DNA of 64,000 bases. Origin: an uncultured delta proteobacterium. GTDB lineage: Bacteria; Desulfobacterota; Binatia; UBA9968. Below the pieces are notes generated by a model that was not told the DNA's origin, made no database searches, and saw nothing but the letters and a program-made list of their open reading frames with translations. Each line of letters starts with the position of its first letter. Position 1 is the first letter of the stretch. Both the position numbers and the translations under genes were made by a program. The stretch lies in the NCBI GenBank assembly GCA_963771465.1, contig CAVYTU010000015.1:352001-416000 (forward strand), written 5' to 3'. Shown here piece by piece: positions 38,030 through 64,000 of the stretch.

Positions 38030-38235
38030 GAGGGCAAAATGCTTACCATAACGAGAGCGAGATTTCACTCGTAAGCGATTGACCCTTGGGATAAATCTGC
38101 CAAGAAGCGATTTTGGCCGCTGCCAATACGCGAATTATCGCGAGCGCGCCATTGTTGACTCAAAAACCAACCGCAGGATATAAGTCGCGCAATCTTGAAT
38201 GGCACTGAAGTCCCGACACAGCTTGAGGTAGCTCC

Positions 38236-40158
38236 ATGGACCCGGACCGCTGGCGATTGATCGAATCGATCTTTGAGCAAGCTCTGCAACGCGAAAGCAC
38301 ACAGCGTCATGCCTTCGTGCAGGCTGAATGCGGCGGCGATGCCGGGTTGATCAGCGAGATCGAAGAGTTGTTAGCGCATCATGATGAGGTCCAGAAACAA
38401 GATTTCCTCCGCAGCGGCCTAAGCCTCGGCGAGACACCGCTGCTTGCAGCTCAAATAGACGATCCCTACATCGGCATGGAGCTCGGACCGTACGTTATCA
38501 AACGGCGCCAGGCGAGCGGTGGCATGGGCAACGTTTATTTAGCCGTGCGCCAGACCGACTTTCGCCAGCAGGTCGCCATCAAAGTTCTCAGACGCGGCAT
38601 GGATTCCGAGGACATTCTGCGCCGCTTCCGCAACGAGATTCAGGTTCTGGCGGCGCTCAGCAAGCATCAGAATATCGCCGCTTTGCTCGATGCCGGAAGC
38701 ACCAAAGAAGGACTGCCGTTCTTCGTCATGGAATTCGTCGACGGTGAGCCGTTGGATTCCTACTGCGACAAACACAAACTCTCCATGAGAGAGAGGGTGG
38801 AGTTGTTTCTGCGCGCCTGCGCGGCGGTAGAATTCGCGCACCGCCATATGGTTATTCATCGCGATCTAAAAATGAGCAATATCTTGGTCCGCGCCGACGC
38901 CATGCCCAAGCTCATCGACTTCGGCATCGCGAAACTGACCACGCCAGAGTTTAGCGCGCAAACGCTTACGCCGACCACACCGGAACGACGCTTCATGACG
39001 GTGGATTATGCCAGCCCCGAACAAACCCGCGGCGAATCCCTTACCGCCGCCAGCGACGTATATTCGTTAGGAGTTATCCTTTACGAACTTGTGACCGGTC
39101 GCAAGCCGTACAAGCTCGGCGGGCTGCCATTGCCGGAGCAAATCAAAGTCATCGCCGAATGCGATCCCGAACTGCCCAGTCGAGCGGTTAAAGGAACCCA
39201 GTCCAATGTCGGCTCGGAGGTTGACAGCTCCGCCTCTGAGGCGAATTTAATCGCCGCTCGGCGCGGCACCACGCCGCTCAAACTCGCGCGGCAGCTCGCC
39301 GGCGACCTGGAAAACATCGTCCTTAGAGCGCTACGCAAGGACCCCCAGCAGCGTTACAACACGGTGAATGATCTATCGGATGATCTGCAATGCTATCTGG
39401 ATGGCAGTCCTGTTCAGGCGCGTCCCATCGGCAAGGCTGAGCGAATCTACCGGTGGTGTCAGCGCAACCCGGTTCCCACGGCACTTCTGGCAACGATGAT
39501 GCTTACCCTCGTCATCGGCCTCTGGCATCTGTCCCGCCTCTCCGAACAGCTCATACAAACAACCGCCATCGAAGGCGCCGCCTTCGAAGCCGAGACCCTC
39601 GCCATCGTGCAAGACTATTATTCCAAGGTCGTGGTCGAAAGGGTGAAAGACAGAGTGCCAGCGACCCATCGATACGCCGTGGTCGAGGGTGCGATCCCGG
39701 TACCCGCCTCCTTCACCATCGATCTCGGTGAACACATCAGGAAATCGCAGATCACCACCATGTCTATGCGCATGTATAGCGACTTCCCATTCAAACACCG
39801 CGAGGGAGGCGGCGCCAAAGATGAGTTTGAGACCAGCGCATTGCGCCGGCTACGCGCCCAACCCAACGAACCTTACTATCGATTTGAGAATTACGACGGC
39901 CGACAATCCCTGCGCTACGCCGCCTCACGGGTCATGAAAGAGGCCTGCGTTAATTGCCACAACTCGCATCCGGACAGCACCAAGAAAGACTGGAAGGTGG
40001 GCGAGGTTCGCGGCGTCTTGGAAATCATCCGCCCCTTGGATCTGGACATCGCCCGCACGCGAAAGCATCTGCTCGAGACTTTCTACTTCATGGGCGGATT
40101 TTCCGCGCTGCTGATAGCTCTGGCGATATTCTTTTTGCGGGTAGGGAAACGACGGTGA
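38236..40158 (+). CDS. Membrane Ser/Thr kinase with extracytoplasmic DUF3365-like heme c domain
   Basis: GGMGNVY, VAIK, HRDLK, DFG; two TM helices flanking a domain with CVNCH and WKVGEVRGVLEI. Confidence 0.9.
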   Translation: MDPDRWRLIESIFEQALQRESTQRHAFVQAECGGDAGLISEIEELLAHHDEVQKQDFLRSGLSLGETPLLAAQIDDPYIGMELGPYVIKRRQASGGMGNVYLAVRQTDFRQQVAIKVLRRGMDSEDILRRFRNEIQVLAALSKHQNIAALLDAGSTKEGLPFFVMEFVDGEPLDSYCDKHKLSMRERVELFLRACAAVEFAHRHMVIHRDLKMSNILVRADAMPKLIDFGIAKLTTPEFSAQTLTPTTPERRFMTVDYASPEQTRGESLTAASDVYSLGVILYELVTGRKPYKLGGLPLPEQIKVIAECDPELPSRAVKGTQSNVGSEVDSSASEANLIAARRGTTPLKLARQLAGDLENIVLRALRKDPQQRYNTVNDLSDDLQCYLDGSPVQARPIGKAERIYRWCQRNPVPTALLATMMLTLVIGLWHLSRLSEQLIQTTAIEGAAFEAETLAIVQDYYSKVVVERVKDRVPATHRYAVVEGAIPVPASFTIDLGEHIRKSQITTMSMRMYSDFPFKHREGGGAKDEFETSALRRLRAQPNEPYYRFENYDGRQSLRYAASRVMKEACVNCHNSHPDSTKKDWKVGEVRGVLEIIRPLDLDIARTRKHLLETFYFMGGFSALLIALAIFFLRVGKRR

Positions 40159-45656: not shown

Positions 45657-46997
45657 CTAGGCCGCGCGGCTGACTGCCGCTTTAGGTTGCATTGGAGCCG
45701 TCGGCAGCAAGATCGTGAAAGTTGTCCCTTCGCCAAGTTCGCTTTCCACGGCGACGCTGCCACCATGACTTTCCACGATGGTTTTAACGATGAAAAGCCC
45801 CAGTCCGGTGCCTTCGATGTTCGCAGCACCATCGAGCCGCCGGAATTCAGAAAATAGGCTGGAGATCTCGTCCTTGGCTACCCCAATGCCGGTATCCTTC
45901 ACTTTGATGGCGATATTTTTCTTGGTCATTGCCGAAGTCACCGTGATCTGGCCGCCGGTTGGTGTAAACTTGATGGCGTTGCTAACCAAGTTCCACAATA
46001 CGCGCTGCAATTGATCGAAGTCGCCCAAGATCGGTTCGAGATTCGCGTCAAGTTTGAGCGCCAGTATTTGCTCTTTCTCCTGGGCCGTGACCATCTGTTG
46101 TAGAACAACTTCTTCGGCGATGACATTCATCTGAACCAGATCTTTTGCGCCATCCAACTTCATTGTTTCTAGTTTCGAAACATCTAAAAAGTCGGTGATC
46201 ATTTTGGTGATGCGGTCGACATTTTTGCGAATGCATTCGAGACACGACAGCCTTTCCTTGGGAGTCGAGTAGCTAATGGACGGCTCGGCGAGTAACTCAG
46301 CATAGCCGAGGATAACGTTGAGCGGCGTCTTGATGTCGTGCGCCAGGGCAGACACCAATTGACGCTTCAACCTTACCGCTGCTTCGATCTTCTCGGTTCG
46401 TCTCTTTTCCCGTTTCACCTGACTCGCCAGATGACCATAAAAGATAGAAATACCGAACATGAACGGCACGCGAAATAGAAAATTTGGGCTGATCGTAGAT
46501 ATAGCTGCGCCGTTCGGGGAGACGAACAGGACAAATACCAAGCTCAGCAGCACGCAGAGCACGCCAATTTGAACGAGGTGCTCGCCAATCGCCGCGATGA
46601 AAACGCAAAAAAAGAAAAGAATAAGCAAATCCCACGGCACTTCCTGCGAAGTCGTAATGGCGCCAAGAATGAGAATTGAATCGACAACCAGGAGTCCCGG
46701 TTCAATCAAGCGTCGTTCGAAATATGTCTCGGGAATACGCTGGAGCAAAACCGCGGACGTGAGACACGTTAACACCAAAAGCGCCGGCAGCGGATCGGTT
46801 ACATTATGTTCATGCGAAACGATAACCAGATAAGAAGTGGCGATTGCAACCAGCCACTGGACGGCGATAATTGCATTTCTATCCTCGCGCAGTGCGCTAC
46901 TTTCGCCGTTCTCCGAGCCCACTATATTTGCCCACCACGAAGTTATCCTGAAGGTTCCGTTCAACGTCAGCCGTTCTAACAAAGCTCTACTTAGCAA
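45657..46997 (-). CDS. Membrane sensor histidine kinase
   Basis: Multi-TM N-terminus; AHDIKTPL H-box, NLVSNAIKFT, DTGIG, GTGLGL; start uncertain. Confidence 0.9.
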   Translation of the reverse strand: MLSRALLERLTLNGTFRITSWWANIVGSENGESSALREDRNAIIAVQWLVAIATSYLVIVSHEHNVTDPLPALLVLTCLTSAVLLQRIPETYFERRLIEPGLLVVDSILILGAITTSQEVPWDLLILFFFCVFIAAIGEHLVQIGVLCVLLSLVFVLFVSPNGAAISTISPNFLFRVPFMFGISIFYGHLASQVKREKRRTEKIEAAVRLKRQLVSALAHDIKTPLNVILGYAELLAEPSISYSTPKERLSCLECIRKNVDRITKMITDFLDVSKLETMKLDGAKDLVQMNVIAEEVVLQQMVTAQEKEQILALKLDANLEPILGDFDQLQRVLWNLVSNAIKFTPTGGQITVTSAMTKKNIAIKVKDTGIGVAKDEISSLFSEFRRLDGAANIEGTGLGLFIVKTIVESHGGSVAVESELGEGTTFTILLPTAPMQPKAAVSRAA

Positions 46998-47263
46998 TTT
47001 CCGCCTCTATCCCCTGGTAAGTTTTTACCCGTACTGGAGCAAGTTTGGTAATCAATCGGTATTGCATCACGCAGCAAGCGTGCCAAGTTTTTCCTATAAA
47101 ATAATTGCAGGAGTTCAAGAAGTTAGCTCCATTCCGAGGGCATCGCGTTGGAGCTGCCGGCGCGTTTTTGACAAGTTATGCCAAAAATGAACTTTCGGGA
47201 GATTGACCATAAGCTCCCACTGCTCGAACCGCGCACCGTGCTTTTTCTCGCGTCGCATCGGGA

Positions 47264-51694: not shown

Positions 51695-52507
51695 TTAAAC
51701 AGAAAAATGGCCGAGCGGTTCGGTGTGGCTATAACTTCGTGCTGTGATTCCCGCTACGCTCTTTTGGAACCAGGCCAAGTCTCTGGCCAGCTTCACCACT
51801 TCGCCAACCAATATCAACGTCGGTGAGCAAAAGTTCTGCTGCCGTCCCATGGCCGCGATGGTGGCGACGGTGCCGAAAGTGGATTTCTGCTGCGGAAGGG
51901 TCCCGGCTTCGATTAGCGCCACCGGACGATCATGCGGGCAGCCCTCTTCTAACAAGCGGCTCATGATCAGACCGAGGTTTTGCAGCCCCATCAAAATCAC
52001 CAAGGTATCCACCGAGCGCGCAAGATCGCCCCATTTCACTTCATCCCCCGAAGCCTTGTGGCCGGTCACGACCGCGAAGCTTGACGCAAGCGAACGGTGC
52101 GTCACGGGAATACCGGCGTAGGCCGGCGCGGCGATGGCCGAACTAATTCCCGGGACGACTTCGAACGCAATGCCCGCCGCGTGCAAGGCCAGCGCTTCCT
52201 CCCCGCCACGGCCAAAGACAAACGGATCGCCACCTTTCAAGCGCACAACTGTTCGGCCCAGGCGCGCATGGCGAATCAGCAACGCTTCGATCTCCCGTTG
52301 ATCGGCGCAATGCTTGCCGGGTTTTTTGCCGACGTAGATCAGTTCCGCCTTGGCGTCGGTGAACTCCAACAGCTCATGGTTCGCCAGCTCATCGAAAAGG
52401 ATCACGTCGGCAGCTTCGAGGCAGCGTTTGCCCTTGAGCGTGATCAGCTCCGGATCGCCCGGCCCGGCGCCGACGAGATAAACTTTGCCGACGGTAGTCG
52501 CGGTCAT
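51695..52507 (-). CDS. cobA: Uroporphyrinogen-III C-methyltransferase (siroheme synthesis)
   Basis: VGAGPGDPELIT, RLKGGDPFVFGRGGEE. Confidence 0.95.
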   Translation of the reverse strand: MTATTVGKVYLVGAGPGDPELITLKGKRCLEAADVILFDELANHELLEFTDAKAELIYVGKKPGKHCADQREIEALLIRHARLGRTVVRLKGGDPFVFGRGGEEALALHAAGIAFEVVPGISSAIAAPAYAGIPVTHRSLASSFAVVTGHKASGDEVKWGDLARSVDTLVILMGLQNLGLIMSRLLEEGCPHDRPVALIEAGTLPQQKSTFGTVATIAAMGRQQNFCSPTLILVGEVVKLARDLAWFQKSVAGITARSYSHTEPLGHFSV

Positions 52508-52512
52508 CGCTG

Positions 52513-54684
52513 CTAATTGTCCTCCAGGGGAAAATCCAAAACCTTGCGCACGCGCACGGCGCAGGCTTTGAGTTCCGGCTGGCGCGAAACCGGATCGCGC
52601 GCGCTGTTGGTTAAATTATTTGCGGCTTTGAAGAATCCCTGATCGCGGCCCCAGTGAAACGGCAGAAAGCAAGTGCCGCGGGCGATTTCTTCGGTAACGC
52701 GGCACTGGGCCATCACCTTGCCGCGGCGCGAAGTGATTTCAACAAAATCGGCGTCGTGAATCCCGTAATGTCGCGCGTCGGCGCGATGCAACTCGAGCAT
52801 CGGTTCTGGCGCGCATTTGCGCAGCGCTTGGTTTTTACCGGTCCGCGTCATCGTGTGCCAATGATATTTCGATCGTCCCGTCGTCAACACCAGAGGGTAA
52901 GCGCCATCGGGTTTTTCCGCCGGCTCGACGTGTTCGACAGGGATCAAGTTCGCTCGGCCATCCGCTGTCGGAAAAAATCCTTCACTGTAGAGCTGAACGG
53001 CTGGAGCGCGCATGGTCTTTGGATAAGGCCACTGCAACGGACTGGACTTGAGCTTAGGATAGCTCATGCCCGAGCAATCGCACGGCGTGTTCTTGGTTAG
53101 CGCGGCGAACTCGGCGAAAATATCTTTCGCCGAGGCGTAGGCGAAAGACTCGCCGAATCCCATCGCTTCGGCAAAGAGCGAAATAATTTTCCAATCCGGC
53201 AAAGCCTCACCGGGCGGTTCGACGAGTTTGGCCATGTAAGAGACGCGCCGTTCCGAGTTGGTCATGACGCCTTCTTTCTCGCTCCACTGCGCCGCCGGCA
53301 AGAGCACATGAGCGAACTTACTCGTCGCGGTTGGGTGATAGGCGTCTTGGACGACAACCAGTTCCGCTTGACGCAGCGCCTTCTCGATCAGATCGATGTC
53401 CGGCGCCGACGCCGCCGGATTGGTGCAAAGAATCCAGATCGCTTTGACCTTACCGTCGGCCAAGGCTTCGAATTGCTCCAACGCCGCCAGGCCGGGCTCG
53501 GGCGCGATGCGACCGAACGGCACGCCCCAATAGCGTTCGACTTCGTCGCGATGCAGCGGATTTTGCACCTCGCGATATCCGGGCAGCAGATTGGCCAGCC
53601 CGCCAACTTCTCGACCGCCCATTGCGTTGGGCTGGCCGGTCAACGAGAACGGCCCGCAGCCGGGCTTGCCGATTTTACCCGTGGCAAGATGCAAATTATG
53701 AATCGCATTGTTTTTGTGCACGCCCACCGTGCTTTGGTTCACTCCCATACTCCACAGTGACATGGCGCGCTCGGCCTTGCCGAAGATCAGCGCAGCCTCG
53801 ACGATCAAACATTCAGGAATGCCGCAGATGTCTTGCACGGTTTTCGGCGCATAATCCTTGATGACTTTGATGAGCGCGCCAAAGCCATTGGTGTGTTGCG
53901 CGATATACTGGCGGTCGATCAAATTCTCATCGAGGAGCACGTAAAGCATGCTATTGAGCAAGGCGATGTCGCTTCCCGGACGAATCGGCAAATGCAGATC
54001 GGCGAAGTCGGCCGTCTCGGTGCGCCGCGGATCGACCGCGATGATCACGACATTGTCAGGATCGCGCAACTTGCGCTGCTTGATTCGTTTGAAGATCACA
54101 GGGTGGCAGTCGGCGGTGTTGGTGCCAATCAAGAATAAACAATTGGCCTCGTCGATATCGGCATACGAATTGGGCGGTCCATCCGAGCCCAGCGACGTCT
54201 TGTAGCCAGCCACCGCCGACGCCATGCACAAGCGCGAGTTGGTATCGAAATTATTCGTGCCGATAAAACCCTTGGCCAGTTTGCTGGCGACATAATATTC
54301 TTCCGTGGTCAATTGCCCCGAGCCGTAAAACGCCACTGCGTCGGGCCCATGCTCGTCGATGATTGCGCCGAAACGTTTGGCCAAATAAGTCATCGCTTGT
54401 TGCCAGGAGGCGCGCTTGAACGGCCCTTCCTGGCACGAGCGTATTTGCGGATGGAGCAAACGGTCTTCGGTGTGTAAGGTCTCCGGCAAATAAACCGCTT
54501 TGAGGCAGAGGTCGCCGCGACTCGACGGATGATCGGGGTCGCCTTTGACCTTTGTGACCACGCCGTTTTTCGTGCCGGCAAGCAGTCCACAGCCGACGCC
54601 ACAATAAGGGCAATACGATTTTTGCCAGCGCTCGATACTGTTGCTGGGAATTGTTGGGTTGCTATTTTCCACGGCCATTGACAC
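52513..54684 (-). CDS. nasA: Assimilatory nitrate reductase (Mo-bisPGD, NarB/NasA type)
   Basis: CPYCGVGC..C [4Fe-4S], NSRLCMASA, GQPNAMGGRE, DPVSRQPELK. Confidence 0.92.
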   Translation of the reverse strand: MSMAVENSNPTIPSNSIERWQKSYCPYCGVGCGLLAGTKNGVVTKVKGDPDHPSSRGDLCLKAVYLPETLHTEDRLLHPQIRSCQEGPFKRASWQQAMTYLAKRFGAIIDEHGPDAVAFYGSGQLTTEEYYVASKLAKGFIGTNNFDTNSRLCMASAVAGYKTSLGSDGPPNSYADIDEANCLFLIGTNTADCHPVIFKRIKQRKLRDPDNVVIIAVDPRRTETADFADLHLPIRPGSDIALLNSMLYVLLDENLIDRQYIAQHTNGFGALIKVIKDYAPKTVQDICGIPECLIVEAALIFGKAERAMSLWSMGVNQSTVGVHKNNAIHNLHLATGKIGKPGCGPFSLTGQPNAMGGREVGGLANLLPGYREVQNPLHRDEVERYWGVPFGRIAPEPGLAALEQFEALADGKVKAIWILCTNPAASAPDIDLIEKALRQAELVVVQDAYHPTATSKFAHVLLPAAQWSEKEGVMTNSERRVSYMAKLVEPPGEALPDWKIISLFAEAMGFGESFAYASAKDIFAEFAALTKNTPCDCSGMSYPKLKSSPLQWPYPKTMRAPAVQLYSEGFFPTADGRANLIPVEHVEPAEKPDGAYPLVLTTGRSKYHWHTMTRTGKNQALRKCAPEPMLELHRADARHYGIHDADFVEITSRRGKVMAQCRVTEEIARGTCFLPFHWGRDQGFFKAANNLTNSARDPVSRQPELKACAVRVRKVLDFPLEDN

Positions 54685-54699
54685 GGCGACAGTCTCGTA

Positions 54700-55665
54700 T
54701 CAACTCAGCGCCTTTACGTCGGTGCGCGCCAAGTGAGCGGCGAAATCGTCCATGGCCGGCTTTTTTCGAAACTCGCCGCGGAAGCGGTTGAAGCCGGTAA
54801 ACTTTTCAATTACGAACAGCTCTTCCGGCGTCGGCGCCGGACCTGCCGGAGCCGACCGCTCGCTAACCGGCCGAGTCGGAACGGCGCCATGCATCGCGTG
54901 TTGATCGAGGAAGCCCAGTAGTTGGCTACGCAGCCGATGATAAGACGGATCGTCAATGAGACTCAGGCGGTCGCGCGGCCGCTCGAACGGCACGGCGAGG
55001 ATCTCACCCACGGTCGCGGCTGGACCGTTGGTCATCATCACCACGCGGTCGGCGAGCAACAGCGCTTCATCGACATCATGGGTCACCATCAACACCGTCT
55101 TATGTTGCTCTGCGCAAAGCTGCATCAACTGGTCTTGCAGCTCCATGCGGGTGATCACATCGAGCAGGCTGAAGGGCTCGTCGAGCAACAACACGCGCGG
55201 CTCGAGAGCAAACGCGCGCGCGATGCCGACGCGCTGACGCATGCCGGCGGACAGCTCGTCGGGATAACAATCGGCGACGCCAACCAACCCCACGGCGTTG
55301 AGAAACTTATCCGCCAACGCTTGACGAACTTTCGCCGACAAGCGCTGGTCGACTTGGTCGACAGCCAGCAGGACATTATCCCGTGCCGTCAGCCAAGGTA
55401 ACAACGCCGAAGATTGAAACACGACACCGCGGTCCAAACCGGGGCCGACGACTTCCCGTCCGCCGATAATGATGCCGCCTTCGCTGGCGTCGTTGAGACC
55501 CATGGCGATCGACAACACGGTCGATTTGCCGCAGCCGGAGTGGCCGATAATGCAAACAAACTCGCCCTCGGCGATTTTGAGATTGAAATCCTTGACGATG
55601 ACCGCCCGGCCCTGGTCGGTGTCGTAGCTCTTGCCAAGTTGGGTGATCTCGAGTGCTGGTATCAT
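54700..55665 (-). CDS. nrtD: Nitrate ABC transporter ATPase
   Basis: GHSGCGKST, LDEPF, MMTNGPAATVG. Confidence 0.88.
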   Translation of the reverse strand: MIPALEITQLGKSYDTDQGRAVIVKDFNLKIAEGEFVCIIGHSGCGKSTVLSIAMGLNDASEGGIIIGGREVVGPGLDRGVVFQSSALLPWLTARDNVLLAVDQVDQRLSAKVRQALADKFLNAVGLVGVADCYPDELSAGMRQRVGIARAFALEPRVLLLDEPFSLLDVITRMELQDQLMQLCAEQHKTVLMVTHDVDEALLLADRVVMMTNGPAATVGEILAVPFERPRDRLSLIDDPSYHRLRSQLLGFLDQHAMHGAVPTRPVSERSAPAGPAPTPEELFVIEKFTGFNRFRGEFRKKPAMDDFAAHLARTDVKALS

Positions 55666-55683
55666 GGACTGTAAGATTCCTGT

Positions 55684-56517
55684 CTATTGGAGTACGAGCG
55701 TTGCGCCGTTCTTGGCGCGGGCCGATGATGGGTCGGCCACGCCACCGGTGAGCAGCCGGAGCGTCTCTCGTCGGGCTTTCTGATAGATCGGCTGGCCGGT
55801 TAATTGAGTTCGCGTGCGCGGATGCTGCGTATCGATGGCGATCGGCGGCCCGAGCGTCGCCCCAGGCGCGGAGGTCAAGGTGTAAATCGTATCGGCAAGT
55901 AGAATCGCCTCATCGATGTCGTTGGTGATCATCACCACCGTTTTGCGCGTTTCCATCCAAATGCGCGCCAACTCCTCCTGCAAGCTGCCGCGGGTCAACG
56001 CATCCAAGGCGCTGAACGGTTCGTCCAGCAGTAAAACTTGCGGATCCATCGCCAGGCCGCGCGCCACCGCTACCCTTTGACGCATGCCGCCGGAAAGCTC
56101 ACGCGGATATTTTTTCATCGCCGCGCCGAGATTGACCAGCTCGATGTAATGCTCCGCGCGCCGGCGCTTCTCCCCCGCCGCGAGTTGCGGCGCCACCGCA
56201 TCCACGGCCAAATAAACGTTCTCGAACACGTTCAACCACGGCAGCAAAGAGTAATTTTGAAATATCACGCCGCGGTCCGGACCGGGGCCGGAAATTGCCT
56301 GGCCGCCGAGGAGAATGCTGCCGGTGTCCGGTTCGATGAGTCCGGCGATCAACGAGATCAACGTCGTCTTACCCGCGCCGGAACGGCCGATGATGCAGAC
56401 AAACTCATTCTCGTCGATCGATAAGTTGATATCGCGCAGCACCGGCAGCACGGCGCTTTCGCCCCGGCTCCCACGCCGAAAGTTTTTACTGAGTCCGGTG
56501 ATTTCAAGCAACGCCAT
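55684..56517 (-). CDS. nrtC: Nitrate ABC transporter ATPase
   Basis: GRSGAGKTT, FQNYSLLPWL, LSGGMRQR. Confidence 0.85.
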   Translation of the reverse strand: MALLEITGLSKNFRRGSRGESAVLPVLRDINLSIDENEFVCIIGRSGAGKTTLISLIAGLIEPDTGSILLGGQAISGPGPDRGVIFQNYSLLPWLNVFENVYLAVDAVAPQLAAGEKRRRAEHYIELVNLGAAMKKYPRELSGGMRQRVAVARGLAMDPQVLLLDEPFSALDALTRGSLQEELARIWMETRKTVVMITNDIDEAILLADTIYTLTSAPGATLGPPIAIDTQHPRTRTQLTGQPIYQKARRETLRLLTGGVADPSSARAKNGATLVLQ

Positions 56518-56526
56518 AGCGCGCCC

Positions 56527-57300
56527 TCACGCGGTCTTGAAGCGCCGCTCAACCACGCCCATGAGCCGGTCGAGAGTGAAACCTATGAGTCCGATTGCCA
56601 GCACGGATAAAAGAATATGCGAGTAAACCAGGCTGTTGTATTCCTGCCAGAGAAAACCACCGAGCCCCGGAGAGCCGGTGAGCATCTCCGCGGCGACGAT
56701 CACCAGCCACGCCATGCCGAGACTCAGACGATAACCGGTAAACATAAACGGCAGCGTGGCAGGGATCATGATCTTCCTAAGCGTCTTCATCGGCGATAGT
56801 TTAAGCACGCGGCCGACGTTTAAATATTCCGTGCCGATGCTGCGCACGCCCATCGCGGTATTGATCACGGTTGGCCACATGGCGCACAGCGCGATGGTGA
56901 ACAGCGCCGCCGGCTCCGACTGTTTGAAGATCACCAACCCCAGAGGCAACCAGGCTAAGGGCGAAATCGGCCGCAGCACTTGAATCACCGGATCGAAGGC
57001 TTGATGAAATTTCGGCGATAGACCGAGCAGAAAACCCAACGGCGTGCCGATGACGATCGCCAAGAAAAATCCTTTGGCGACGCGCACGAGACTTAAGAAA
57101 GCGAAGCGCAAAATCCCTTGATTCATCTCGCCGTCTTTGAAAAAAGGGTTGAGAATATACTGTTGGCTTTCTTGCCAGGTCTTGAGCGGTGACGGCAAAT
57201 CGGGCGCGACTTTCAAGCTGATCGCAGTCCAAATCATCAGCATCAACGACACACCCAGCAGCGGCAAAATCAGCGCATTCGCATCGATACGTTTTTCCAT
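56527..57300 (-). CDS. nrtB: Nitrate ABC transporter permease
   Basis: LRPISPLAWLP, WLVIVAAEML. Confidence 0.92.
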   Translation of the reverse strand: MEKRIDANALILPLLGVSLMLMIWTAISLKVAPDLPSPLKTWQESQQYILNPFFKDGEMNQGILRFAFLSLVRVAKGFFLAIVIGTPLGFLLGLSPKFHQAFDPVIQVLRPISPLAWLPLGLVIFKQSEPAALFTIALCAMWPTVINTAMGVRSIGTEYLNVGRVLKLSPMKTLRKIMIPATLPFMFTGYRLSLGMAWLVIVAAEMLTGSPGLGGFLWQEYNSLVYSHILLSVLAIGLIGFTLDRLMGVVERRFKTA

Positions 57301-57314
57301 TGTCTAAATAACCT

Positions 57315-58574
57315 CTAAGCAAGATTGCTGACTGAGAATTTTTTCACGTACTCTTCCGGCTTCGCCGGATCGAACTCGACTTTGTCGAAGAGCGTTTCTT
57401 TTTTCATGTCTTCTTTCGGCACGGCGACGCCCAGATCTTTGGCGACTTCGCGGTAAATATCGGGTCGGATGACCTTGTTCACAATGCCCGCGTAATCCGG
57501 CGCGCCTTTGACCATGCCCCAGCGGCGGAACTGCGAGATCCACCACACGCCATGCGACTTCCAGGGGAAATTGGTGTTGCGGTCGAAAAAGGTCATGTAG
57601 TTGGGATCTTTCTCCTTGCGCCCGTCGCCGTAGTCGTAGTCGCCCAACATCCGTCCAAGAATGACTTCCTTCGAGGTATTGATGTATTGCGGTTTTGACA
57701 CCACCTCGGCCATGTGCGCGCGGTTTTCCAACTTGTCGATATGCTGGCTCGACTCGGTGACGGCGCGCAGGATCGCTTTGACGGTCTTGGGATTTTTCTC
57801 GGCGAATTCTTCGGTGAATGCCAAAACCTTTTCGGGATGATCCTTCCAGATTTGCTGGGTCGTCACTGCCGTGTAACCGATGCCGTCGGCGATGGCGCGC
57901 GCGTTCCACGGTTCGCCGACACAGAATCCGTCCATCTTGTCGACTTTCATATTGGCGACCATTTGCGCTGGCGGGATCGTGATCAGCGTCACATCTTTGT
58001 CCGGGTTGATGCCGCCGGCGGCGAGCCAGTAGCGCGTCCACATGGCGTGGGTGCCGGGCGGGAAAGTCATCGCGAAGGTCATCGGCTTGCCGGCCTTCTT
58101 CGCTTCCTCGACGATCGGCTTCAGCGCCTGCGGCGTGCGCACGCCCTTGGCCTTTAAATCATTCTCAAGTGTGATCGCTTGGCCGTTGCGATTGAGCACG
58201 AGTGGAATGATCATCGGCTTCACCGGCGAACCGAGCAGTCCCATACTCGATGCGAAAGGCATGCCGAAAAGCATATGGGTTGCGTGATTTTCACCGAGCG
58301 TGAGTTTGTCGCGGATCGCCGCCCAGGAAGCTTCCTTGGAAATCGTCGACTCGATGCCGTATTTTTTGAACAGGCCGAGCTCATGCGCCATCACGATCGA
58401 CGAGCAATCGGTCAGCGCGATAATGCCGAGACGAATCTTGGTCGTCTCCGGCGCGTCGGCGGCATAGACGCCGCCGACCCAACCGCTCGGCAGATGGCTC
58501 AACAGCATGCCCAACGAACTGGCGCCGGCCACTTTGAGAAATTCGCGCCGGTTTGGCTGCTTAACTCTCTCCAT
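57315..58574 (-). CDS. nrtA: CmpA/NrtA nitrate-binding protein with Tat signal
   Basis: NRREFLK twin-arginine; ALTDC, FCVGEPWN, WKDHPEK. Confidence 0.92.
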   Translation of the reverse strand: MERVKQPNRREFLKVAGASSLGMLLSHLPSGWVGGVYAADAPETTKIRLGIIALTDCSSIVMAHELGLFKKYGIESTISKEASWAAIRDKLTLGENHATHMLFGMPFASSMGLLGSPVKPMIIPLVLNRNGQAITLENDLKAKGVRTPQALKPIVEEAKKAGKPMTFAMTFPPGTHAMWTRYWLAAGGINPDKDVTLITIPPAQMVANMKVDKMDGFCVGEPWNARAIADGIGYTAVTTQQIWKDHPEKVLAFTEEFAEKNPKTVKAILRAVTESSQHIDKLENRAHMAEVVSKPQYINTSKEVILGRMLGDYDYGDGRKEKDPNYMTFFDRNTNFPWKSHGVWWISQFRRWGMVKGAPDYAGIVNKVIRPDIYREVAKDLGVAVPKEDMKKETLFDKVEFDPAKPEEYVKKFSVSNLA

Positions 58575-58579
58575 CTCGA

Positions 58580-60433
58580 TCACCCCTCCACGGTATAGTT
58601 TTCGCCCTGCGCGGCGAGTTTGAAAATTTTCGCTTTGAGCTTGGCGTTGGTCGCACAAGCGCCGCTGGTTAAATCGAATTTGTAGCCGTGCAGCGGGCAG
58701 ACAACGGCGCCTTTTTCGATCCAGCCGGCCGACAGCTGGCCGCCTTCATGAGGACAAGCGTTTTGGATCGCGCAAAGTTGACCGTTATGTTTAAAGACTG
58801 CGATCTCGTCGTTATTCACGCGCACGAGTTTGGCTGATCCTTCTTTGATTTCGTCGGCGCGAATGACCGCTTTGACCGGTTCGATCTTGGCTTCCGGCTG
58901 CGTGCCGGTGGCGACCGGTATGGGAATTTTTCTAAGCTGCTGGCGCATCGCTTTGAACGCGCCATGCTTTACTAAACCGGCCAAAACATCCGGCAAATCA
59001 TCGCACGGGACATCTTCTAAAAGTTTGATTGGAAAATTCGCCTCACATCCAGCCGCGCCGCCGGCAAAAACGTCGACTGCTTCGACCACTTCGCCCCCGC
59101 GCTTGATGTTTTTGCCGAGCAGTCCGATATCCGCCAGGGTGTGATTACCGCAACTCGCCGGACAGCCCGACCAGTGCATGCGCAGCGGTTGGGTCTTGCC
59201 GAGTTTTGCTTCGAGCGCGCGCGCGGTCTTGAGCGCCCAACCTTTGGTATCGATCAAGGCGAAGTGGCAATAGTCCATGCCGGTGCAACTCACCAGACCG
59301 CGCATGACTTCGGAGGGATCGTAACGTAGCGCCTGAAGCACCGGCGCTTCAGTGAGCTCGCCGATCCTGCGGTCGGGCACGTTGGGAATAATAATATTTT
59401 GCCCAACGGTCAGACGCAGCTCGCCGCTGCCGTAGTTCTCGGCCGCAGCGGCAACCTCGAGCATCTGCTCCGAAGTCATGCGTCCCACGGGCACGGCAAG
59501 ACCGACATAATTCAGTCCGGCCTGTTGCTGGCGAAACACGCCGACATGGTCGGTATGCTTCGGCGCGCGTTGATCCTTGCCGGCCGAGGCGAGCGGGCGA
59601 TCGACGCGCCTTTCCAATTCTTTGCGAAACTTTTCCACGCCCCATGCTTCGATGAGAAACGCCAGACGCGCCTTGGTGCGCAGCTCGCGCGCGCCATGGT
59701 CGCGAAAGATCATCACCACATGGGAACAGACTGACACGGCTTCTTCGGGCGTGACGAATAGATTTAACGGCGACGCCATGCGCAAACCGCCCGAGCCGAG
59801 TTTGCCGCCGACGGCGACGTTGAAGCCAGCCACCAGCGCTCCGTCCGTTTCCTTCAGCGCCGGCGTCAGCGCTAAATCCTGCCCCTCGGCATGGGTGCAA
59901 GCTTCTTTGCACGCGGTAATGGTGACGTTGAACTTGCGCGGCAGATTGGTGAACGACTTGTTGCCGATGAACATCCGGGTGAACTCGCACGCCACCGGCG
60001 AGGCATCGAACAATTCATTAGGAGTGATACCGGCCACCGGGCAACCGATCACGCCACGGATATTATCCATGCCGGTCTGTAATGAAATCAGATCGACGGC
60101 GCGCAAGCGCTGCCAAATTTCCGGCACGTCGTTGATCTTAAACTCACGCAGCTGCATCTGCTGGCGCGTGGTAATATCTGCGAAGCCTTTGCCGAAGTCA
60201 CGGCTGATCTCACCGATGGTGCGCAGCTGCGCCGCGCTCATGAAACCATTGGCGAAGCGCAGCCGCATCATGAAGCGGCCGGGAGTCTGGCGGCGAAAAA
60301 ATACTCCCGCCCACTTCATCAGCTCCTTGTCGCCATCGGTGATTTTCTCCCAACCCTCTGCGGCATAGCGCGGTATGTCGTCGAGAATATCGAGACCGTC
60401 TTTCTCTCTCTTATATTCTTCGATCTTGTTCAT
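58580..60433 (-). CDS. nirA: Ferredoxin-nitrite reductase fused to a C-terminal Rieske domain
   Basis: TTRQ, NLPRKFN, CTGMDYC..SGCPASC; CPHEGG..CPLHGY. Confidence 0.9.
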   Translation of the reverse strand: MNKIEEYKREKDGLDILDDIPRYAAEGWEKITDGDKELMKWAGVFFRRQTPGRFMMRLRFANGFMSAAQLRTIGEISRDFGKGFADITTRQQMQLREFKINDVPEIWQRLRAVDLISLQTGMDNIRGVIGCPVAGITPNELFDASPVACEFTRMFIGNKSFTNLPRKFNVTITACKEACTHAEGQDLALTPALKETDGALVAGFNVAVGGKLGSGGLRMASPLNLFVTPEEAVSVCSHVVMIFRDHGARELRTKARLAFLIEAWGVEKFRKELERRVDRPLASAGKDQRAPKHTDHVGVFRQQQAGLNYVGLAVPVGRMTSEQMLEVAAAAENYGSGELRLTVGQNIIIPNVPDRRIGELTEAPVLQALRYDPSEVMRGLVSCTGMDYCHFALIDTKGWALKTARALEAKLGKTQPLRMHWSGCPASCGNHTLADIGLLGKNIKRGGEVVEAVDVFAGGAAGCEANFPIKLLEDVPCDDLPDVLAGLVKHGAFKAMRQQLRKIPIPVATGTQPEAKIEPVKAVIRADEIKEGSAKLVRVNNDEIAVFKHNGQLCAIQNACPHEGGQLSAGWIEKGAVVCPLHGYKFDLTSGACATNAKLKAKIFKLAAQGENYTVEG

Positions 60434-60451
60434 CGCTCGCGAAGTGGTATG

Positions 60452-60467
60452 AGCAACGGGTATGCCA
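60452..60467 (-). promoter_or_regulatory. Sigma54 promoter of nirA-nrt-nas operon
   Basis: TGGCAT-ACCCG-TTGCT, canonical spacing. Confidence 0.8.
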
Positions 60468-60736
60468 TCAAGGAAATCCGCAATACCTGAATAAATTCAG
60501 AGCTCTTAATATTAATCGAGATTGATATGCTCACGATTCATTCGCATGCCGCCCATAAATTCAGCAGACGCCGCAAGAACGGAATCGTCACATGCCAGGT
60601 GACTAATAAACCGGCAGCTGCAACCAAATTAAGCTGCGCCAGGAAAATCATACCCTCGGCGACTGCAGCGTTGGGCCATTTAGTATTGATCCGGCTCCGC
60701 ATCGCCGGAACCGAAGCGACCGGAACAATTTTTTTT

Positions 60737-61509
60737 CTAACTATCTAGAACTTCGTCCCGCACAACCGGTTCTGATTTGGCCTGCGAGTCTTGATAGAAG
60801 ACGCCCGCAGCCTGGTCTGTCTTGGCTCCGAGTAACGCTTGAGCATTGCCCATCGCCCGCTCGATATCTTGGATCGGCGTATCGGAGATTCGCCCATGTC
60901 CCGGATAAAGCGCGTTGAGAGCGAAACAGCGCAGCCGCGCTAGCGAATCCAAATAATCGCCGACGCTGCCCGACTCGGCGATGTAGGAAAGCGTGCCGCC
61001 GGCAAAAACACTGTCAGCGGAAAAGAGCAGGCCATGGTTGGTTTCGATGAGCGAAATACAGCCCGAGGTGTGTCCCGGCGTGTGAAAGACGCGCAAACTG
61101 TAATTGCCGAGATCGATGCGCGTCATATTCTCCAACCAAAAATGCACTCGCATCGGCAATTCGTTGAGATCGTTGCCCTTGTACATGGTCACGTAGTAGT
61201 CGCCGGTGGTCATTTTCGATGCGGCCAGCCGGTAAGCCGCGATCATCGCCGACTCTTGAAAGTAGCGATTGGCGCCGATGTGATCGCAGTGCTCATGGGA
61301 GTTGATGACCAAATTGATATCGCGCACTTTCATGCCGATTTGCCGCGAGTCCTCGTTCCAGCACTGGAAAATTTTGATCCGAGCCGGTATCGATCATGAC
61401 GTTCATGTAATCGCCCTTGATAACGTAACTATGGCTGCTGCCGTTCAGGCCGCGAATCTGAAATATGCCTGGATTGAGTTCGTTAACCGCGTTGATTTTT
61501 TTGTCCCAT
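60737..61509 (-). CDS. Metallo-beta-lactamase-fold hydrolase (two apparent +1 frameshifts at the 5' end)
   Basis: SHEHCDHIG, TPGHT, PGHG; upstream frame SHSYVIKGDYMNVMIDTG belongs to the same fold; breaks at A7 (61496-61502) and near 61346. Confidence 0.8.
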
Positions 61510-61514
61510 GCAGT

Positions 61515-61862
61515 TCAACTCCTTGTTTCCTTCATCGCTCCTTCGAGGTCATCGTAGATTTCAAACTGCTCGGCGAAACGGTCGTCGTGAAAATATCCCT
61601 TCAGTTGCGGATTGAGATGACACAGCCGCAACACCCCGACGCGCTGATCGACTTCGCGTTTGAACGAGGTCAGCACGCCGACTTCCCAGACACCGAACTG
61701 CTCCAATTGTTTCAAGTTCACGATCACGCGAATCCCTTGGCGCGTGAGCCAGCGTCGAAACATATGGCGGACCCGCAGCGGTTCATTGTTTTCCGCCTTT
61801 CCCGACGGCGTCACGATCACCCAACCGGCAACTTCGCTGATGCGATACCTCACCGCGTTCAT
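61515..61862 (-). CDS. STAS-domain (anti-anti-sigma-like) protein
   Basis: VIVTPSG..VIVNLKQLEQF..LRLCHLNP..FEIYDDLEGA; ATGA overlap with upstream ORF. Confidence 0.8.
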   Translation of the reverse strand: MNAVRYRISEVAGWVIVTPSGKAENNEPLRVRHMFRRWLTRQGIRVIVNLKQLEQFGVWEVGVLTSFKREVDQRVGVLRLCHLNPQLKGYFHDDRFAEQFEIYDDLEGAMKETRS

Positions 61863-62056
61863 TTCCATAGCGGCCAGTCCCGCGGCCGGCGGCGTATCGG
61901 CGGTGCCGGCGGTAGCGCAAGATTGAAACATTTAGCCATTTCCAGCACGGGGATCTGCGGAATATCTTTATCGGCGCGGTCGCCGAATACGTCCGCTAGA
62001 TAGATGACATTGTCCAAGATCTTTCCCGTCATGGTTTTCTGCCCAATAATATCCAT
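61859..62056 (-). CDS. Small hypothetical protein (65 aa)
   Basis: AAAGGAG SD; first ORF after the leader; stop overlaps STAS start. Confidence 0.6.
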   Translation of the reverse strand: MDIIGQKTMTGKILDNVIYLADVFGDRADKDIPQIPVLEMAKCFNLALPPAPPIRRRPRDWPLWK

Positions 62057-62075
62057 GGCAATCTCCTTTGTCGAT

Positions 62076-62144
62076 AAAAATAAAAAGGCGCTCCACCGCG
62101 TAACGGTGAGCGCCTTTGCTCTACCGAAGGCAACGTCGCCTTCG
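62076..62144 (-). promoter_or_regulatory. ANTAR target RNA: two hexaloop hairpins overlapping an intrinsic terminator
   Basis: P1 CGAAGGC-GACGTT-GCCTTCG; P2 GAGC-AAAGGC-GCTC; terminator AAAGGCGCTCACCG..CGGTGGAGCGCCTTT-TTATTTTT. Confidence 0.88.
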
Positions 62145-62159
62145 TGAAAGTTACACTAC

Positions 62160-62175
62160 GCAATGCGTTATGCCA
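62160..62175 (-). promoter_or_regulatory. Sigma54-like promoter with one extra spacer base
   Basis: TGGCAT-AACGCA-TTGC (N6 rather than N5); NtrC-like TGCTCAAAAGCGCAGCA at 62259-62275. Confidence 0.5.
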
Positions 62176-62294
62176 TCAGCACCCTGCCTCAAAGTACTGC
62201 CGATTTCTCAATTGAGTAACTGTCCATAAGGTCGCTGCCAATGGATCGATCAATTTGCTGCTCAAAAGCGCAGCAGCGACTCTTGCGTCGATCT

Positions 62295-63623
62295 TTATTT
62301 ATTATGCTGGTTGATTTCTGCGGCGAGCAGGATCGCTTGAGCGACATCCGCCATCGGCTTGCGCATGTTCATACTCGTCTTTTTGATCAACGAATAGGCT
62401 TGTTCTTCTGACAGCCGGCGCTGCTCCATCAACAGACCTTTGGCCCGTTCGATGATTTTGCGCGACTCCAAGTTTTCTCGCAGAGACTCGTTTTCCTGCT
62501 GCAGGGCGTGGAAGTCCTGGAAGCGCGAAATTGCCAATTCGATCGCCGGGCTGACCGCTTCCACGCGCACCGGTTTTAATAGCAGAGCCATCACGCCCGC
62601 TTTGGTGGCGCGCTCGACCGTCGTGGCATCGTAATGGCTGGTGATCAGGACGACGGGGAGGCGAATGTTCGCCAAGATATCGCTCGCCACGTGAATCCCG
62701 TCGAGATCGGCTAAACCGACTGCCATGAGCATCACATCCGGCGTCGTCGCCCGTGCCAATGCCACCGCGAGTTTGCCGCTACTCCCTTCGCCGACGACCT
62801 CGTATCCGCTCGCGAGTAAAATGTTGATGAGTTGCCGGCGGGAAGGTTCATGGTCGTCGATGACCAAGGCTTTTCTCATAGCCAGGGCCTGGCCTCGATC
62901 TCTCTGTCGGCTGCGCGCTCCGCCGACGCGGCGGACAAACTCGCTGAGAAATCGTTCGCCGTAATATTTCAGCGTGGGTCCGTACTTCTGCGTGTCCGCC
63001 AATATCTTGTCGGGCAAGATGTAGGGCGCAAGGGCGAGATCTTTCGATCGTTGCTCGATCCAACGTTCGATCATGGATGGCGTCACCTCGAGATGAAATT
63101 GCAGACCGTAGATCGACTTGCCGACGCGAAACGCCTGATTCTTGAAATGGACCGATGACGCCAATCGTATAGCGTCGCTCGGTAATTCAAAGCCATCGCC
63201 ATGCCACTGAAACACCGTAGCATTTTCCGGCAGGTAACCGAGCAAAGAATCGACTTGGCCGTGGGGCGTAATCGAGATTGGACACCAGCCAATCTCTTTG
63301 ACGGGTCCGTGAAATACCGCTGCGCCAATCGTCGAAGCGATCAGCTGTGCGCCGAGACAAATACCGAGAATCGGTACGGCTTCATCGATGGCGGCGCGGA
63401 TAATTCTTTTTTCCCAGCGCAGGAACGGAAAGTCGTCCTCGTCGTCGATGCTCATCGGGCCGCCGAGAACGATCAGCGCTTTAACCCGTTGCCAATCCTC
63501 GGTCGGCATCTCACCGTGAAACAGTCTCAAGACTTGGTATGCCGCGCCTTGCTTCTCCAGCACTTCGGCGAAGAAGCCAAGATCTTCGAAAGGATCATGC
63601 TGGAAAACCAACACTTCTTCCAT
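62295..63623 (-). CDS. Class I glutamine amidotransferase in frame with a pseudo-receiver ANTAR antiterminator (ANTAR part from ATG 62879)
   Basis: GGPMS, GICLGAQL, QFHLEV; then LVIDD..MLMAVGL (phospho-Asp replaced by Ala) and RKIIERAKGLLM..AYSLIKKTSMN. Confidence 0.85.
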   Translation of the reverse strand: MEEVLVFQHDPFEDLGFFAEVLEKQGAAYQVLRLFHGEMPTEDWQRVKALIVLGGPMSIDDEDDFPFLRWEKRIIRAAIDEAVPILGICLGAQLIASTIGAAVFHGPVKEIGWCPISITPHGQVDSLLGYLPENATVFQWHGDGFELPSDAIRLASSVHFKNQAFRVGKSIYGLQFHLEVTPSMIERWIEQRSKDLALAPYILPDKILADTQKYGPTLKYYGERFLSEFVRRVGGARSRQRDRGQALAMRKALVIDDHEPSRRQLINILLASGYEVVGEGSSGKLAVALARATTPDVMLMAVGLADLDGIHVASDILANIRLPVVLITSHYDATTVERATKAGVMALLLKPVRVEAVSPAIELAISRFQDFHALQQENESLRENLESRKIIERAKGLLMEQRRLSEEQAYSLIKKTSMNMRKPMADVAQAILLAAEINQHNK

Positions 63624-63682
63624 TGGCTGCTCAACCCATATCCTCGCGCCCTCTCGCGGGCGGTTGCGCGCGAGAATCAAAC

Positions 63683-63953
63683 TTAGATATCGAAATAGAG
63701 AGCGAACTCCCAAGGATGGGGACGGAGCCGGATGGCATCGATCTCGTTCTTTCTCTTGTACTCCAGCCAGGTCTCGATCACGTCCTTGGTGAAGACATCG
63801 CCTCTCAGCAAAAAGTCATGATCCTTCTCCAAGGCGTGCAATGCTTGATTCAACGACCCCGGCATCGATTTCACCTTGGCCGCCTCTTCGGGTCTCCAAC
63901 TCATACAAGTCCTTGTCGATCGATTTGGGCGGCTCGATCTTGTTTCTGATCTT
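63683..63953 (-). pseudogene. glnA: Glutamine synthetase I C-terminal fragment
   Basis: [18 protein letters not shown] / [29 protein letters not shown]; +1 frameshift near 63894; homology lost above ~63953. Confidence 0.8.
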
Positions 63954-64000
63954 GTAAACATTAATTTGGTAAGCGGAGCCGGCTCGGATTTGATTCAATC

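Follow-up and report, generated by a model that had tools for sequence, protein, structure and literature searches.

The NasS-NasT system of Paracoccus denitrificans, Azotobacter, and Pseudomonas is composed of two proteins. NasT is an antiterminator in which a receiver domain precedes an RNA-binding ANTAR domain (REC-ANTAR), and it is held inactive by NasS, an NrtA-like partner that binds nitrate or nitrite. The locus considered here lies in a 64,000-nucleotide stretch of DNA from an uncultured delta proteobacterium (Binatia; UBA9968; GenBank assembly GCA_963771465.1, contig CAVYTU010000015.1, positions 352,001 to 416,000 of the forward strand), referred to below as the window. It is made up of a class I glutamine amidotransferase (GATase), a NasT-like regulator, and the leader of a nitrate operon. 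An earlier note on the window described the first two as a single candidate glutamine-sensing antiterminator. Their joint frame of 442 codons is read here as two genes, a 248-codon GATase and a 194-codon nasT-like antiterminator, joined in this contig by one extra base that is most likely a mixed-strain consensus error. The regulator would act by antitermination in the leader of the nitrate operon. This reading is given a probability of about 65%.

Like NasS-NasT, the window's system has the REC-ANTAR domain order, a nitrite reductase together with nitrate transport and reduction genes as targets, a leader with hairpins and a terminator, and control that is free of a kinase. Unlike NasT, the regulator has no adjoining nasS, carries Ala in place of the acceptor Asp, and lies in an amtB-glnA block where it is mostly coupled to a GATase gene. 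The window locus bears no sign of nitrate sensing. The AmiC-AmiR system of the Pseudomonas aeruginosa amidase operon is a second relative, as AmiR is a pseudo-receiver ANTAR protein that works independently of phosphorylation. PMC3795266 describes AmiR as controlled through sequestration by its partner. The window locus differs in having no adjacent AmiC-like gene (periplasmic-binding-protein fold) and a different target operon. EutV and Rv1626/PdtaR are the best structural-sequence matches. The regulator aligns over nearly its whole 194 residues with PDB 1s8n (Rv1626/PdtaR, E 5e-37) and 6wsh (EutV, E 7e-33), and the leader has the dual hexaloop RNA motif described for this class in PMC3369931. 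Both proteins have the acceptor Asp and cognate kinases, whereas the window regulator has Ala.

The GATase resembles the YfeJ/DnfC-type stand-alone GATases (PDB 9xfs, 1o1y, 3m3p, 3l7n), which are ~240-250 residues long and possess a Cys, His, Glu catalytic triad. PMC13753816 treats YfeJ and DnfC as enzymes whose substrate is glutamine or a gamma-glutamyl compound, with glutamine or gamma-glutamyl hydroxamate proposed for DnfC. The window GATase differs from this type in lacking dnfAB neighbours and in being coupled to an ANTAR gene. A full-text literature search, with supplements not covered, found no pairing of ANTAR, glutamine amidotransferase, and antitermination in print.

The gene pair in the window and in its relatives

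In the letters of the window, the pair forms one uninterrupted open frame of 442 codons, from an ATG at 63623 to 62295 on the minus strand. Pfam places three domains along this frame: GATase (PF00117) at residues 44-183 (66.8 bits, cut-off 22.8), Response_reg (PF00072) at residues 253-358 (65.4 bits, cut-off 30.2), and ANTAR (PF03861) at residues 379-432 (77.8 bits, cut-off 27.3; profile positions 1-54 of 54). The order given in the earlier note, a class I GATase with its triad (Cys89, His177, Glu179) followed in frame by an Ala-bearing receiver and an ANTAR domain, is indeed what the window encodes.

In relatives, the GATase gene has 248 codons and its TGA overlaps the ATG of a 194- or 195-codon nasT-like gene (ATGA), with the two genes in different frames. 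Genome loci were collected where the GATase is at least 70% identical to that of the window (n=23). A full-length nasT directly follows the GATase in the other frame in 19 of them, with the ATGA overlap (GTGA in L022). L003 retains only the first nasT codons, and L012, L013, and L019 are without nasT. A separate regulator-guided scan of metagenomes yielded 80 loci, 70 of which contain the junction. The GATase is directly upstream of nasT in 67 of these 70, and in none of the 70 is the nasT frame open through the GATase, the longest frame being 187 codons. The adjacency that the earlier note wished to see checked is therefore kept in both sets, and the coupled gene pair that it named as an alternative is the natural state. 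The coupling spans GATase identities of 70-99% and NasT identities of 58-97% and is conserved in one Binatia clade.

Protein records agree with this arrangement. The 120 best homologs of the 442-residue query (78-96% identity; 5.8 billion proteins searched) are all GATases of 244-305 residues, none of them fused. Most are exactly 248 residues long and end in ...RGQAPV or ...RGQAQI, where the window reads ...RGQALA-MRKALVIDD. In a profile-free scan, no protein spanning both halves was found among the best 150 of 1.84 billion representatives. Six longer proteins checked among these 150 carry other domains and no GATase-REC-ANTAR arrangement. A one-chain architecture of this kind, for which the earlier note had suggested a search, has no independent record in the protein, genome, or metagenome scans. 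The regulator was found in 42 of 90 family genomes, and the open frame holding it is 506 residues in the window's genome only, versus 170-311 residues in the other 41.

The exact 442-residue protein is recorded from no contig other than the window's own, which is 1,265,356 nt long. Its 90%-identity cluster has 58 members, and 14 other members among those listed are 248 or 194 residues long. One of the latter matches the regulator half of the window at 193 of 194 residues, and 248-residue proteins match the GATase half at 240-242 of 248. One 248-residue member ends in ...RGQALV, which is the end that the window would encode with the extra base removed. The GATase frame runs into the nasT frame because of this single base, which is found in no relative. 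The indel artefact allowed for in the earlier note is thus a 1-nt indel private to the window's contig.

Loss of nasT has left traces at some loci. In L003 (987-1241), L013, and L019 nasT is deleted, and the ATGA with a few codons remains after the GATase stop. In L003, the nasT stump joins the 3' end of a molybdopterin-enzyme-like gene (translation judged by eye).

A receiver domain without its phosphoacceptor

The regulator is the product of the single ANTAR gene in the window's genome. It has the ANTAR and receiver domains of the REC-ANTAR antiterminator class and lacks the phosphoacceptor Asp. The earlier note had pointed to Ala at this position, and the alignment bears it out, with MLMAVGL in the window versus VIMDVKM in Rv1626/PdtaR. 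The window and all 19 loci that have a full-length nasT share Ala at the acceptor position (20 of 20), and the sister-clade genes have Ala or Ser there (n=5). With Ala for Asp, the receiver is predicted to be incapable of phosphorylation.

Classical nasT-nasS pairs occur in other Binatia families, and Asp is kept in all five NasS-linked NasT proteins read. In the tree, the Ala-receiver genes form a branch of their own (100/100 support), apart from the nasT genes with Asp that lie beside nasS in other families of the class.

The neighbours of the regulator vary within the family. In a census of the 30 best regulator loci, a GATase is present in 22 (including the window's own), glnA lies directly before the regulator in six, and two have other neighbours. 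At these six loci, the gap between glnA and nasT is tens of bases (about 45 nt in L100); one of them, L103, comes from the unpublished genome G205. Counted over 28 family loci of the Ala/Ser-receiver clade, glnA is the direct neighbour, with no intervening GATase, in six; the context is different again in L106, one of the 28, and in L045. Sister genera have an Ala-receiver nasT right after glnA, without an orthologous GATase. The constant feature is thus glnA-...-nasT, with the GATase as an optional insert.

Orthologs of the GATase were sought in 11 genomes whose nasT has no GATase directly upstream. Nine of these have no ortholog, having either no match or a 40-42% paralog elsewhere. No GATase match was found in G038, while eight others, G121, G047, G213, G214, G215, G216, and G210 among them, hold only a 40-42% paralog on another contig or elsewhere. 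The ortholog is present and non-adjacent in G002 (1.7 kb away) and G145 (on another contig). The tree is compatible with either one gain or one loss of the GATase-nasT association.

Two loci show further surroundings. In L048 (G121), an Ala/Ser-receiver nasT lies right after a PII gene, and in L045 (G038), it lies right after an Amt-like ammonium-transporter gene (judged by sequence). The nitrogen-status operons that contain the regulator are thus arranged in more than one way.

The predicted promoter and the leader of the nitrate operon

The leader and the nitrate genes that the earlier note placed downstream of the regulator are both present. A dual hairpin and terminator are followed by genes for NirA-Rieske, NrtA, NrtBCD, NasA, and a CysG-like protein (Table 1). 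The leader has the RNA target of ANTAR proteins, namely two hexaloop hairpins (P1 and P2), the second of which overlaps the terminator. Over 20 leaders, pairing stands at 87% for P1, where three pairs have both sides changed, and at 96.9% for the terminator, where one pair shows a UA/CG exchange; in slid controls it drops to 29-57%. P2 is invariant over the same leaders, with the loop AAAGGC. Position 4 of the P1 loop is G in all 20 leaders, and position 1 is A in half of them (10 of 20). PMC3369931 gives the dual-hexaloop target of EutV, NasR, and AmiR as having loops with A in the first position and G in the fourth. A scan of 55000-64000 against Rfam, with E up to 1, returned no family.

Transcription of the leader would depend on a sigma-54-type promoter. 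Sigma-54 promoters have GG and GC elements exactly 10 bases apart (TGGCAC-N5-TTGC). All 19 relatives have the 15-mer TGGCAY-N5-TTGC with this spacing; the window exceeds it by one base. The genome contains rpoN. An inverted repeat further upstream could be a candidate site for an enhancer-binding protein.

Table 1. Features of the locus, with positions in the 64,000-nucleotide window
Feature	Positions	Strand	Remarks
glnA 3' remnant	63683..63945	-	last 85-105 codons; extra base near 63893
Class I GATase gene (YfeJ/DnfC-like, PRK07053-like)	62880..63623	-	248 codons in relatives; stop is TGA 62876-62878, in the other frame
Private extra base	62881..62882	-	shifts GATase frame into nasT frame; from comparison with relatives
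nasT-like gene	62295..62879	-	Ala-receiver, coiled-coil linker, ANTAR RNA-binding domain; 194 codons + stop
Inverted repeat GCTGC..N..GCAGC / ..GGCAG	62233..62278	-	conserved columns in 20 leaders; ~60-110 nt upstream of promoter
Putative sigma-54-type promoter TGGCAT-N-TTGC	62160..62175	-	extra base near 62164 between GG and GC
Hairpin P1	62125..62144	-	7 bp, hexaloop GACGTT
Hairpin P2	62107..62122	-	hexaloop AAAGGC (A1, G4); 3' arm within 5' arm of terminator
Intrinsic terminator	62075..62115	-	13-bp stem + U run; mutually exclusive with P2
65-codon ORF, ends ...WPLWK	61859..62056	-	first gene after terminator; no Pfam family
STAS-domain protein	61515..61931	-	likely start is the ATG overlapping the small ORF stop, near 61868
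Metallo-beta-lactamase-fold (MBL) gene	60737..61508	-	broken by two private 1-nt insertions
Ferredoxin-nitrite reductase NirA fused to Rieske/NirD-like domain	58580..60433	-	
NrtA-type periplasmic nitrate/nitrite-binding protein	57315..58658	-	Tat signal RREFLKVAGASS
NrtB permease, two ABC ATPases, molybdopterin nitrate reductase NasA, tetrapyrrole methylase (sirohaem)	51698..57303	-	

A mechanism can be drawn by analogy with EutV, NasR, and AmiR, with the gene pair, the dead receiver, the leader, and the operon supplied by sequence comparison. The amtB-glnA-GATase-nasT block would be expressed under nitrogen limitation, and the sigma-54 promoter would start the leader RNA. A dimer of the NasT-like protein is expected to bind the hexaloop hairpins P1 and P2, and this binding would keep the 3' arm of P2 out of the terminator. 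Polymerase could then enter the small open reading frame (ORF), followed by the STAS, MBL, nirA, nrtABCD, nasA, and cysG genes. On this scheme, the operon would need both sigma-54 activation and the regulator.

Possible signals acting on the regulator

No NasS or AmiC-like gene neighbours nasT, as the earlier note had stated; the gene is flanked by the GATase upstream and the leader downstream. No adjacent NasS was found, and the two strongest NMT1_2 (NrtA-like) matches in the genome carry Tat signals, the second being followed by ABC permease and ATPase genes. These two high-scoring proteins are periplasmic transporter parts and not NasS. The genome, 6.9 Mb in size, holds 151 NMT1_2 matches (NrtA/SsuA-like binding proteins), an unusually large expansion that could include a distant NasS. 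The statement that the window holds no kinase was mistaken, as a HisKA/HATPase_c frame (45660-47006) and a Ser/Thr kinase (38227-40155) are both present. Neither is relevant to the regulator because its receiver is without Asp.

There is thus no phosphorylation switch and no NasS found, and the gene is always in a nitrogen-regulated block, amtB-glnA-[GATase]-nasT. The best guess is therefore that the activity of the regulator is set mainly by the amount made under nitrogen limitation, possibly with a further protein partner. The modulator of the protein could be nothing, the GATase, glutamine synthetase (GS), PII, or a small ligand such as c-di-GMP, which PMC10783516 reports for NasT of Pseudomonas putida.

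The GATase is most simply seen as a co-expressed glutamine or gamma-glutamyl hydrolase. An alignment of 42 GATases shows no variation at its triad residues Cys89, His177, and Glu179. Its first 234 residues align with NCBIfam PRK07053 over profile positions 2-233 of 234 at 217.6 bits, below the equivalog cut-off of 250. The GATase is best classed as a relative of PRK07053 and not as a certified member. The family is large and stand-alone, and the loci at 35-46% identity have no nasT neighbour in 10 of 10 cases. In one protein, P0245 (1145 residues), a GATase of the same family shares the chain with an AAA_16 ATPase and a DNA-binding domain of the LuxR type (GerE); the fold of this family is thus also found fused to a regulator.

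The GATase could instead act as a trigger enzyme in the place of NasS or AmiC. It would bind the NasT-like pseudo-receiver and release or sequester it according to glutamine or a gamma-glutamyl compound. In this case, the GATase would have replaced NasS as the ligand-sensing partner in one Binatia clade, and glutamine would gate nitrate assimilation through an enzyme-regulator complex acting on RNA. The proposal is unlikely, though it is the best of the alternatives. The ATGA coupling (19 of 23 genome loci) and the adjacency (67 of 70 metagenome loci) persist where NasT has diverged to 58%. The separateness of the Ala-receiver clade from NasS-linked nasT, the lack of a NasS-like candidate when the two strongest NrtA-like genes are Tat-bearing, and a receiver that cannot be phosphorylated in the genome's only ANTAR protein are all consistent with it, as is the fusion in P0245. 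Control by a partner has a precedent in NasS-NasT and AmiC-AmiR (PMC3795266). However, the same Ala/Ser-receiver clade stands directly behind glnA without a GATase in six of 28 family loci and in other contexts in L106 and L045, and nine of the 11 genomes without an adjacent GATase hold no ortholog. The reverse is also seen, as nasT has been lost in three of the 23 GATase loci. The catalytic triad is invariant in a family mostly unlinked to ANTAR, stop/start overlaps are common in operons without any binding between the products, and adjacency is the sole positive evidence. Complex prediction of the GATase with the NasT-like protein (alignments A1 and A2) gave a score of 0.00 and is uninformative either way.

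Origin of the extra base

The nearest metagenome contigs are L109, whose GATase is 99.2% identical to that of the window, and L108, whose regulator is 97% identical. At the junction, the sequence is ...CCCTGGCTATGA in the window, ...CCCTGG-TATGA in L109, and ...CCCAGC-TATGA in L108. In the spacer of the sigma-54 promoter, the window reads AACGCATTGC, L109 AACGC-TTGC, and L108 AGCCA-TTGC. At both sites, L109 and L108 differ by a substitution (C/G at the junction, A/C in the spacer), and the window holds both letters in tandem. The letters of both relatives, side by side at two sites, look like a mixed-strain consensus error. Within the same 2.6 kb, the MBL gene has two further private 1-nt insertions and the glnA remnant has one. 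The private indels of this 2.6 kb, relative to both nearest contigs or to all aligned relatives, are all insertions, and one is in a run of A.

Logan contigs of four soil runs were compared with the window at a likeness of at least 90%. They represent related strains that differ by 1-8%, and those over the junction all lack one base, with the gap at 62881 (or 62885): one of one in X1, one of one in X2, two of two in X3, and two of two in X5. The pieces of X1 contigs identical to the window stop short of the junction. An exact search of metagenome contigs for 40 bases beside the junction gave no matches. A local consensus error is preferred over a genuine recent mutation, at odds of roughly four to one.

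Several points weigh against the two-gene reading or parts of it. No indexed run contains half of the sampled words of the stretch (best share 0.44), so a genuine, very recent mutation may still be the cause. Elsewhere the window looks accurate, with intact frames for rpoB, rpoC, fusA, tuf, lon, clpX, and further genes, and errors would therefore have to be local. The private insertions at 63665 and 63676 are real alleles because a 105-nt contig of run X1 is identical to the window there. In the leader, position 1 of the P1 loop is G and not A in 10 of 20 leaders, the window included. On the side of control, regulation of NasT by expression level only is inferred, and the tight ATGA coupling over the whole clade also fits a physical partnership with the GATase.

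The first of these points bear on the possibility that the fusion is a genuine, very recent mutation of the strain, which would make one GATase-REC-ANTAR chain, either functional or part of a decaying locus. This is somewhat less probable than a sensory GATase. The 442-codon frame is uninterrupted in the letters, the inserted base lies outside any homopolymer, and no other conserved gene is broken across the 64 kb, which shows that the assembly is not prone to errors in general. The same locus has lost most of glnA in what looks like a real structural change, two neighbouring private insertions are confirmed by an independent contig, and the basic, probably disordered tail of the GATase could act as a linker. 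However, all other records are without the fusion, even those of proteins that match the two halves at 193 of 194 and 240-242 of 248 residues, and so is the contig with a 99.2% identical GATase. The inserted base duplicates a strain polymorphism, as does the insertion in the sigma-54 spacer, which would disable the promoter if real, and the bias of the 2.6 kb toward insertions, one of them in an A run, is also against it. An assembly ridden with indels throughout was considered and rejected, as the conserved genes in 1-57303 each form one open frame with full-length Pfam matches, and the frames of rplA, rplK, and nusG are of normal length.

Whether it arose by error or by mutation, the fused form has not been conserved as a protein. 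A glutamine-sensing antiterminator in a single chain most probably does not exist here, and the fusion protein is of no importance, being most likely a slip of assembly. The lasting result is a widely conserved NasT/AmiR variant from a soil phylum that is uncultured. Its receiver is dead, no NasS accompanies it, and its gene is wired into an amtB-glnA block, usually coupled to an amidotransferase gene; it would act on a nitrate-assimilation leader driven by sigma-54. The system, two proteins and one RNA, allows one to ask how ANTAR regulators without a kinase read nitrogen status. It also carries a warning for methods, as the artefactual fusion has already merged 248-residue GATases and 194-residue regulators into one protein cluster at 90% identity.

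The amtB-glnA neighbourhood

An intact ammonium transporter gene lies upstream of the glnA remnant. The earlier note had the frame following glnA sequence. This sequence is present as a 3' remnant only, with an extra base of its own. In relatives, a full glnA of 471-481 codons lies between amtB and the GATase gene, and the first ~390 codons are gone in the window. The single complete glnA of the genome is on contig 14 (G000:C14:654523-655620). The truncation (63683-64055) is either a real deletion or another sign of the mixed-strain stretch.

In Bacillus, GS controls TnrA and GlnR. Control of the pseudo-receiver by such a nitrogen-status protein encoded beside nasT, either GS or PII, is improbable here. 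In its favour, glnA is upstream of nasT in most loci, directly or across the GATase, a PII gene is directly upstream in L048, and an Amt-like gene is in L045. Against it, the case is one of gene neighbourhood, and the local glnA of the window's genome is reduced to a remnant.

Genes following the terminator

A conserved small ORF of 65-74 codons (...TGKIFDNI.FLAEVFGD..D.DIP..PVLEMA.CF.L...WPLWK) is the first gene past the terminator, both in the window and in each of the 19 relatives examined. Its stop overlaps the start of the STAS gene where that gene comes next. The insertions in the MBL gene are an A7 in place of A6 near 61502 and another near 61350; the gene is intact at ~61350 in six aligned relatives and at ~61502 in L108. 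In L056 (G020), which belongs to another genus, a protein with a more degenerate receiver (LMRGDL) and an ANTAR domain is encoded ahead of the same STAS-MBL genes.

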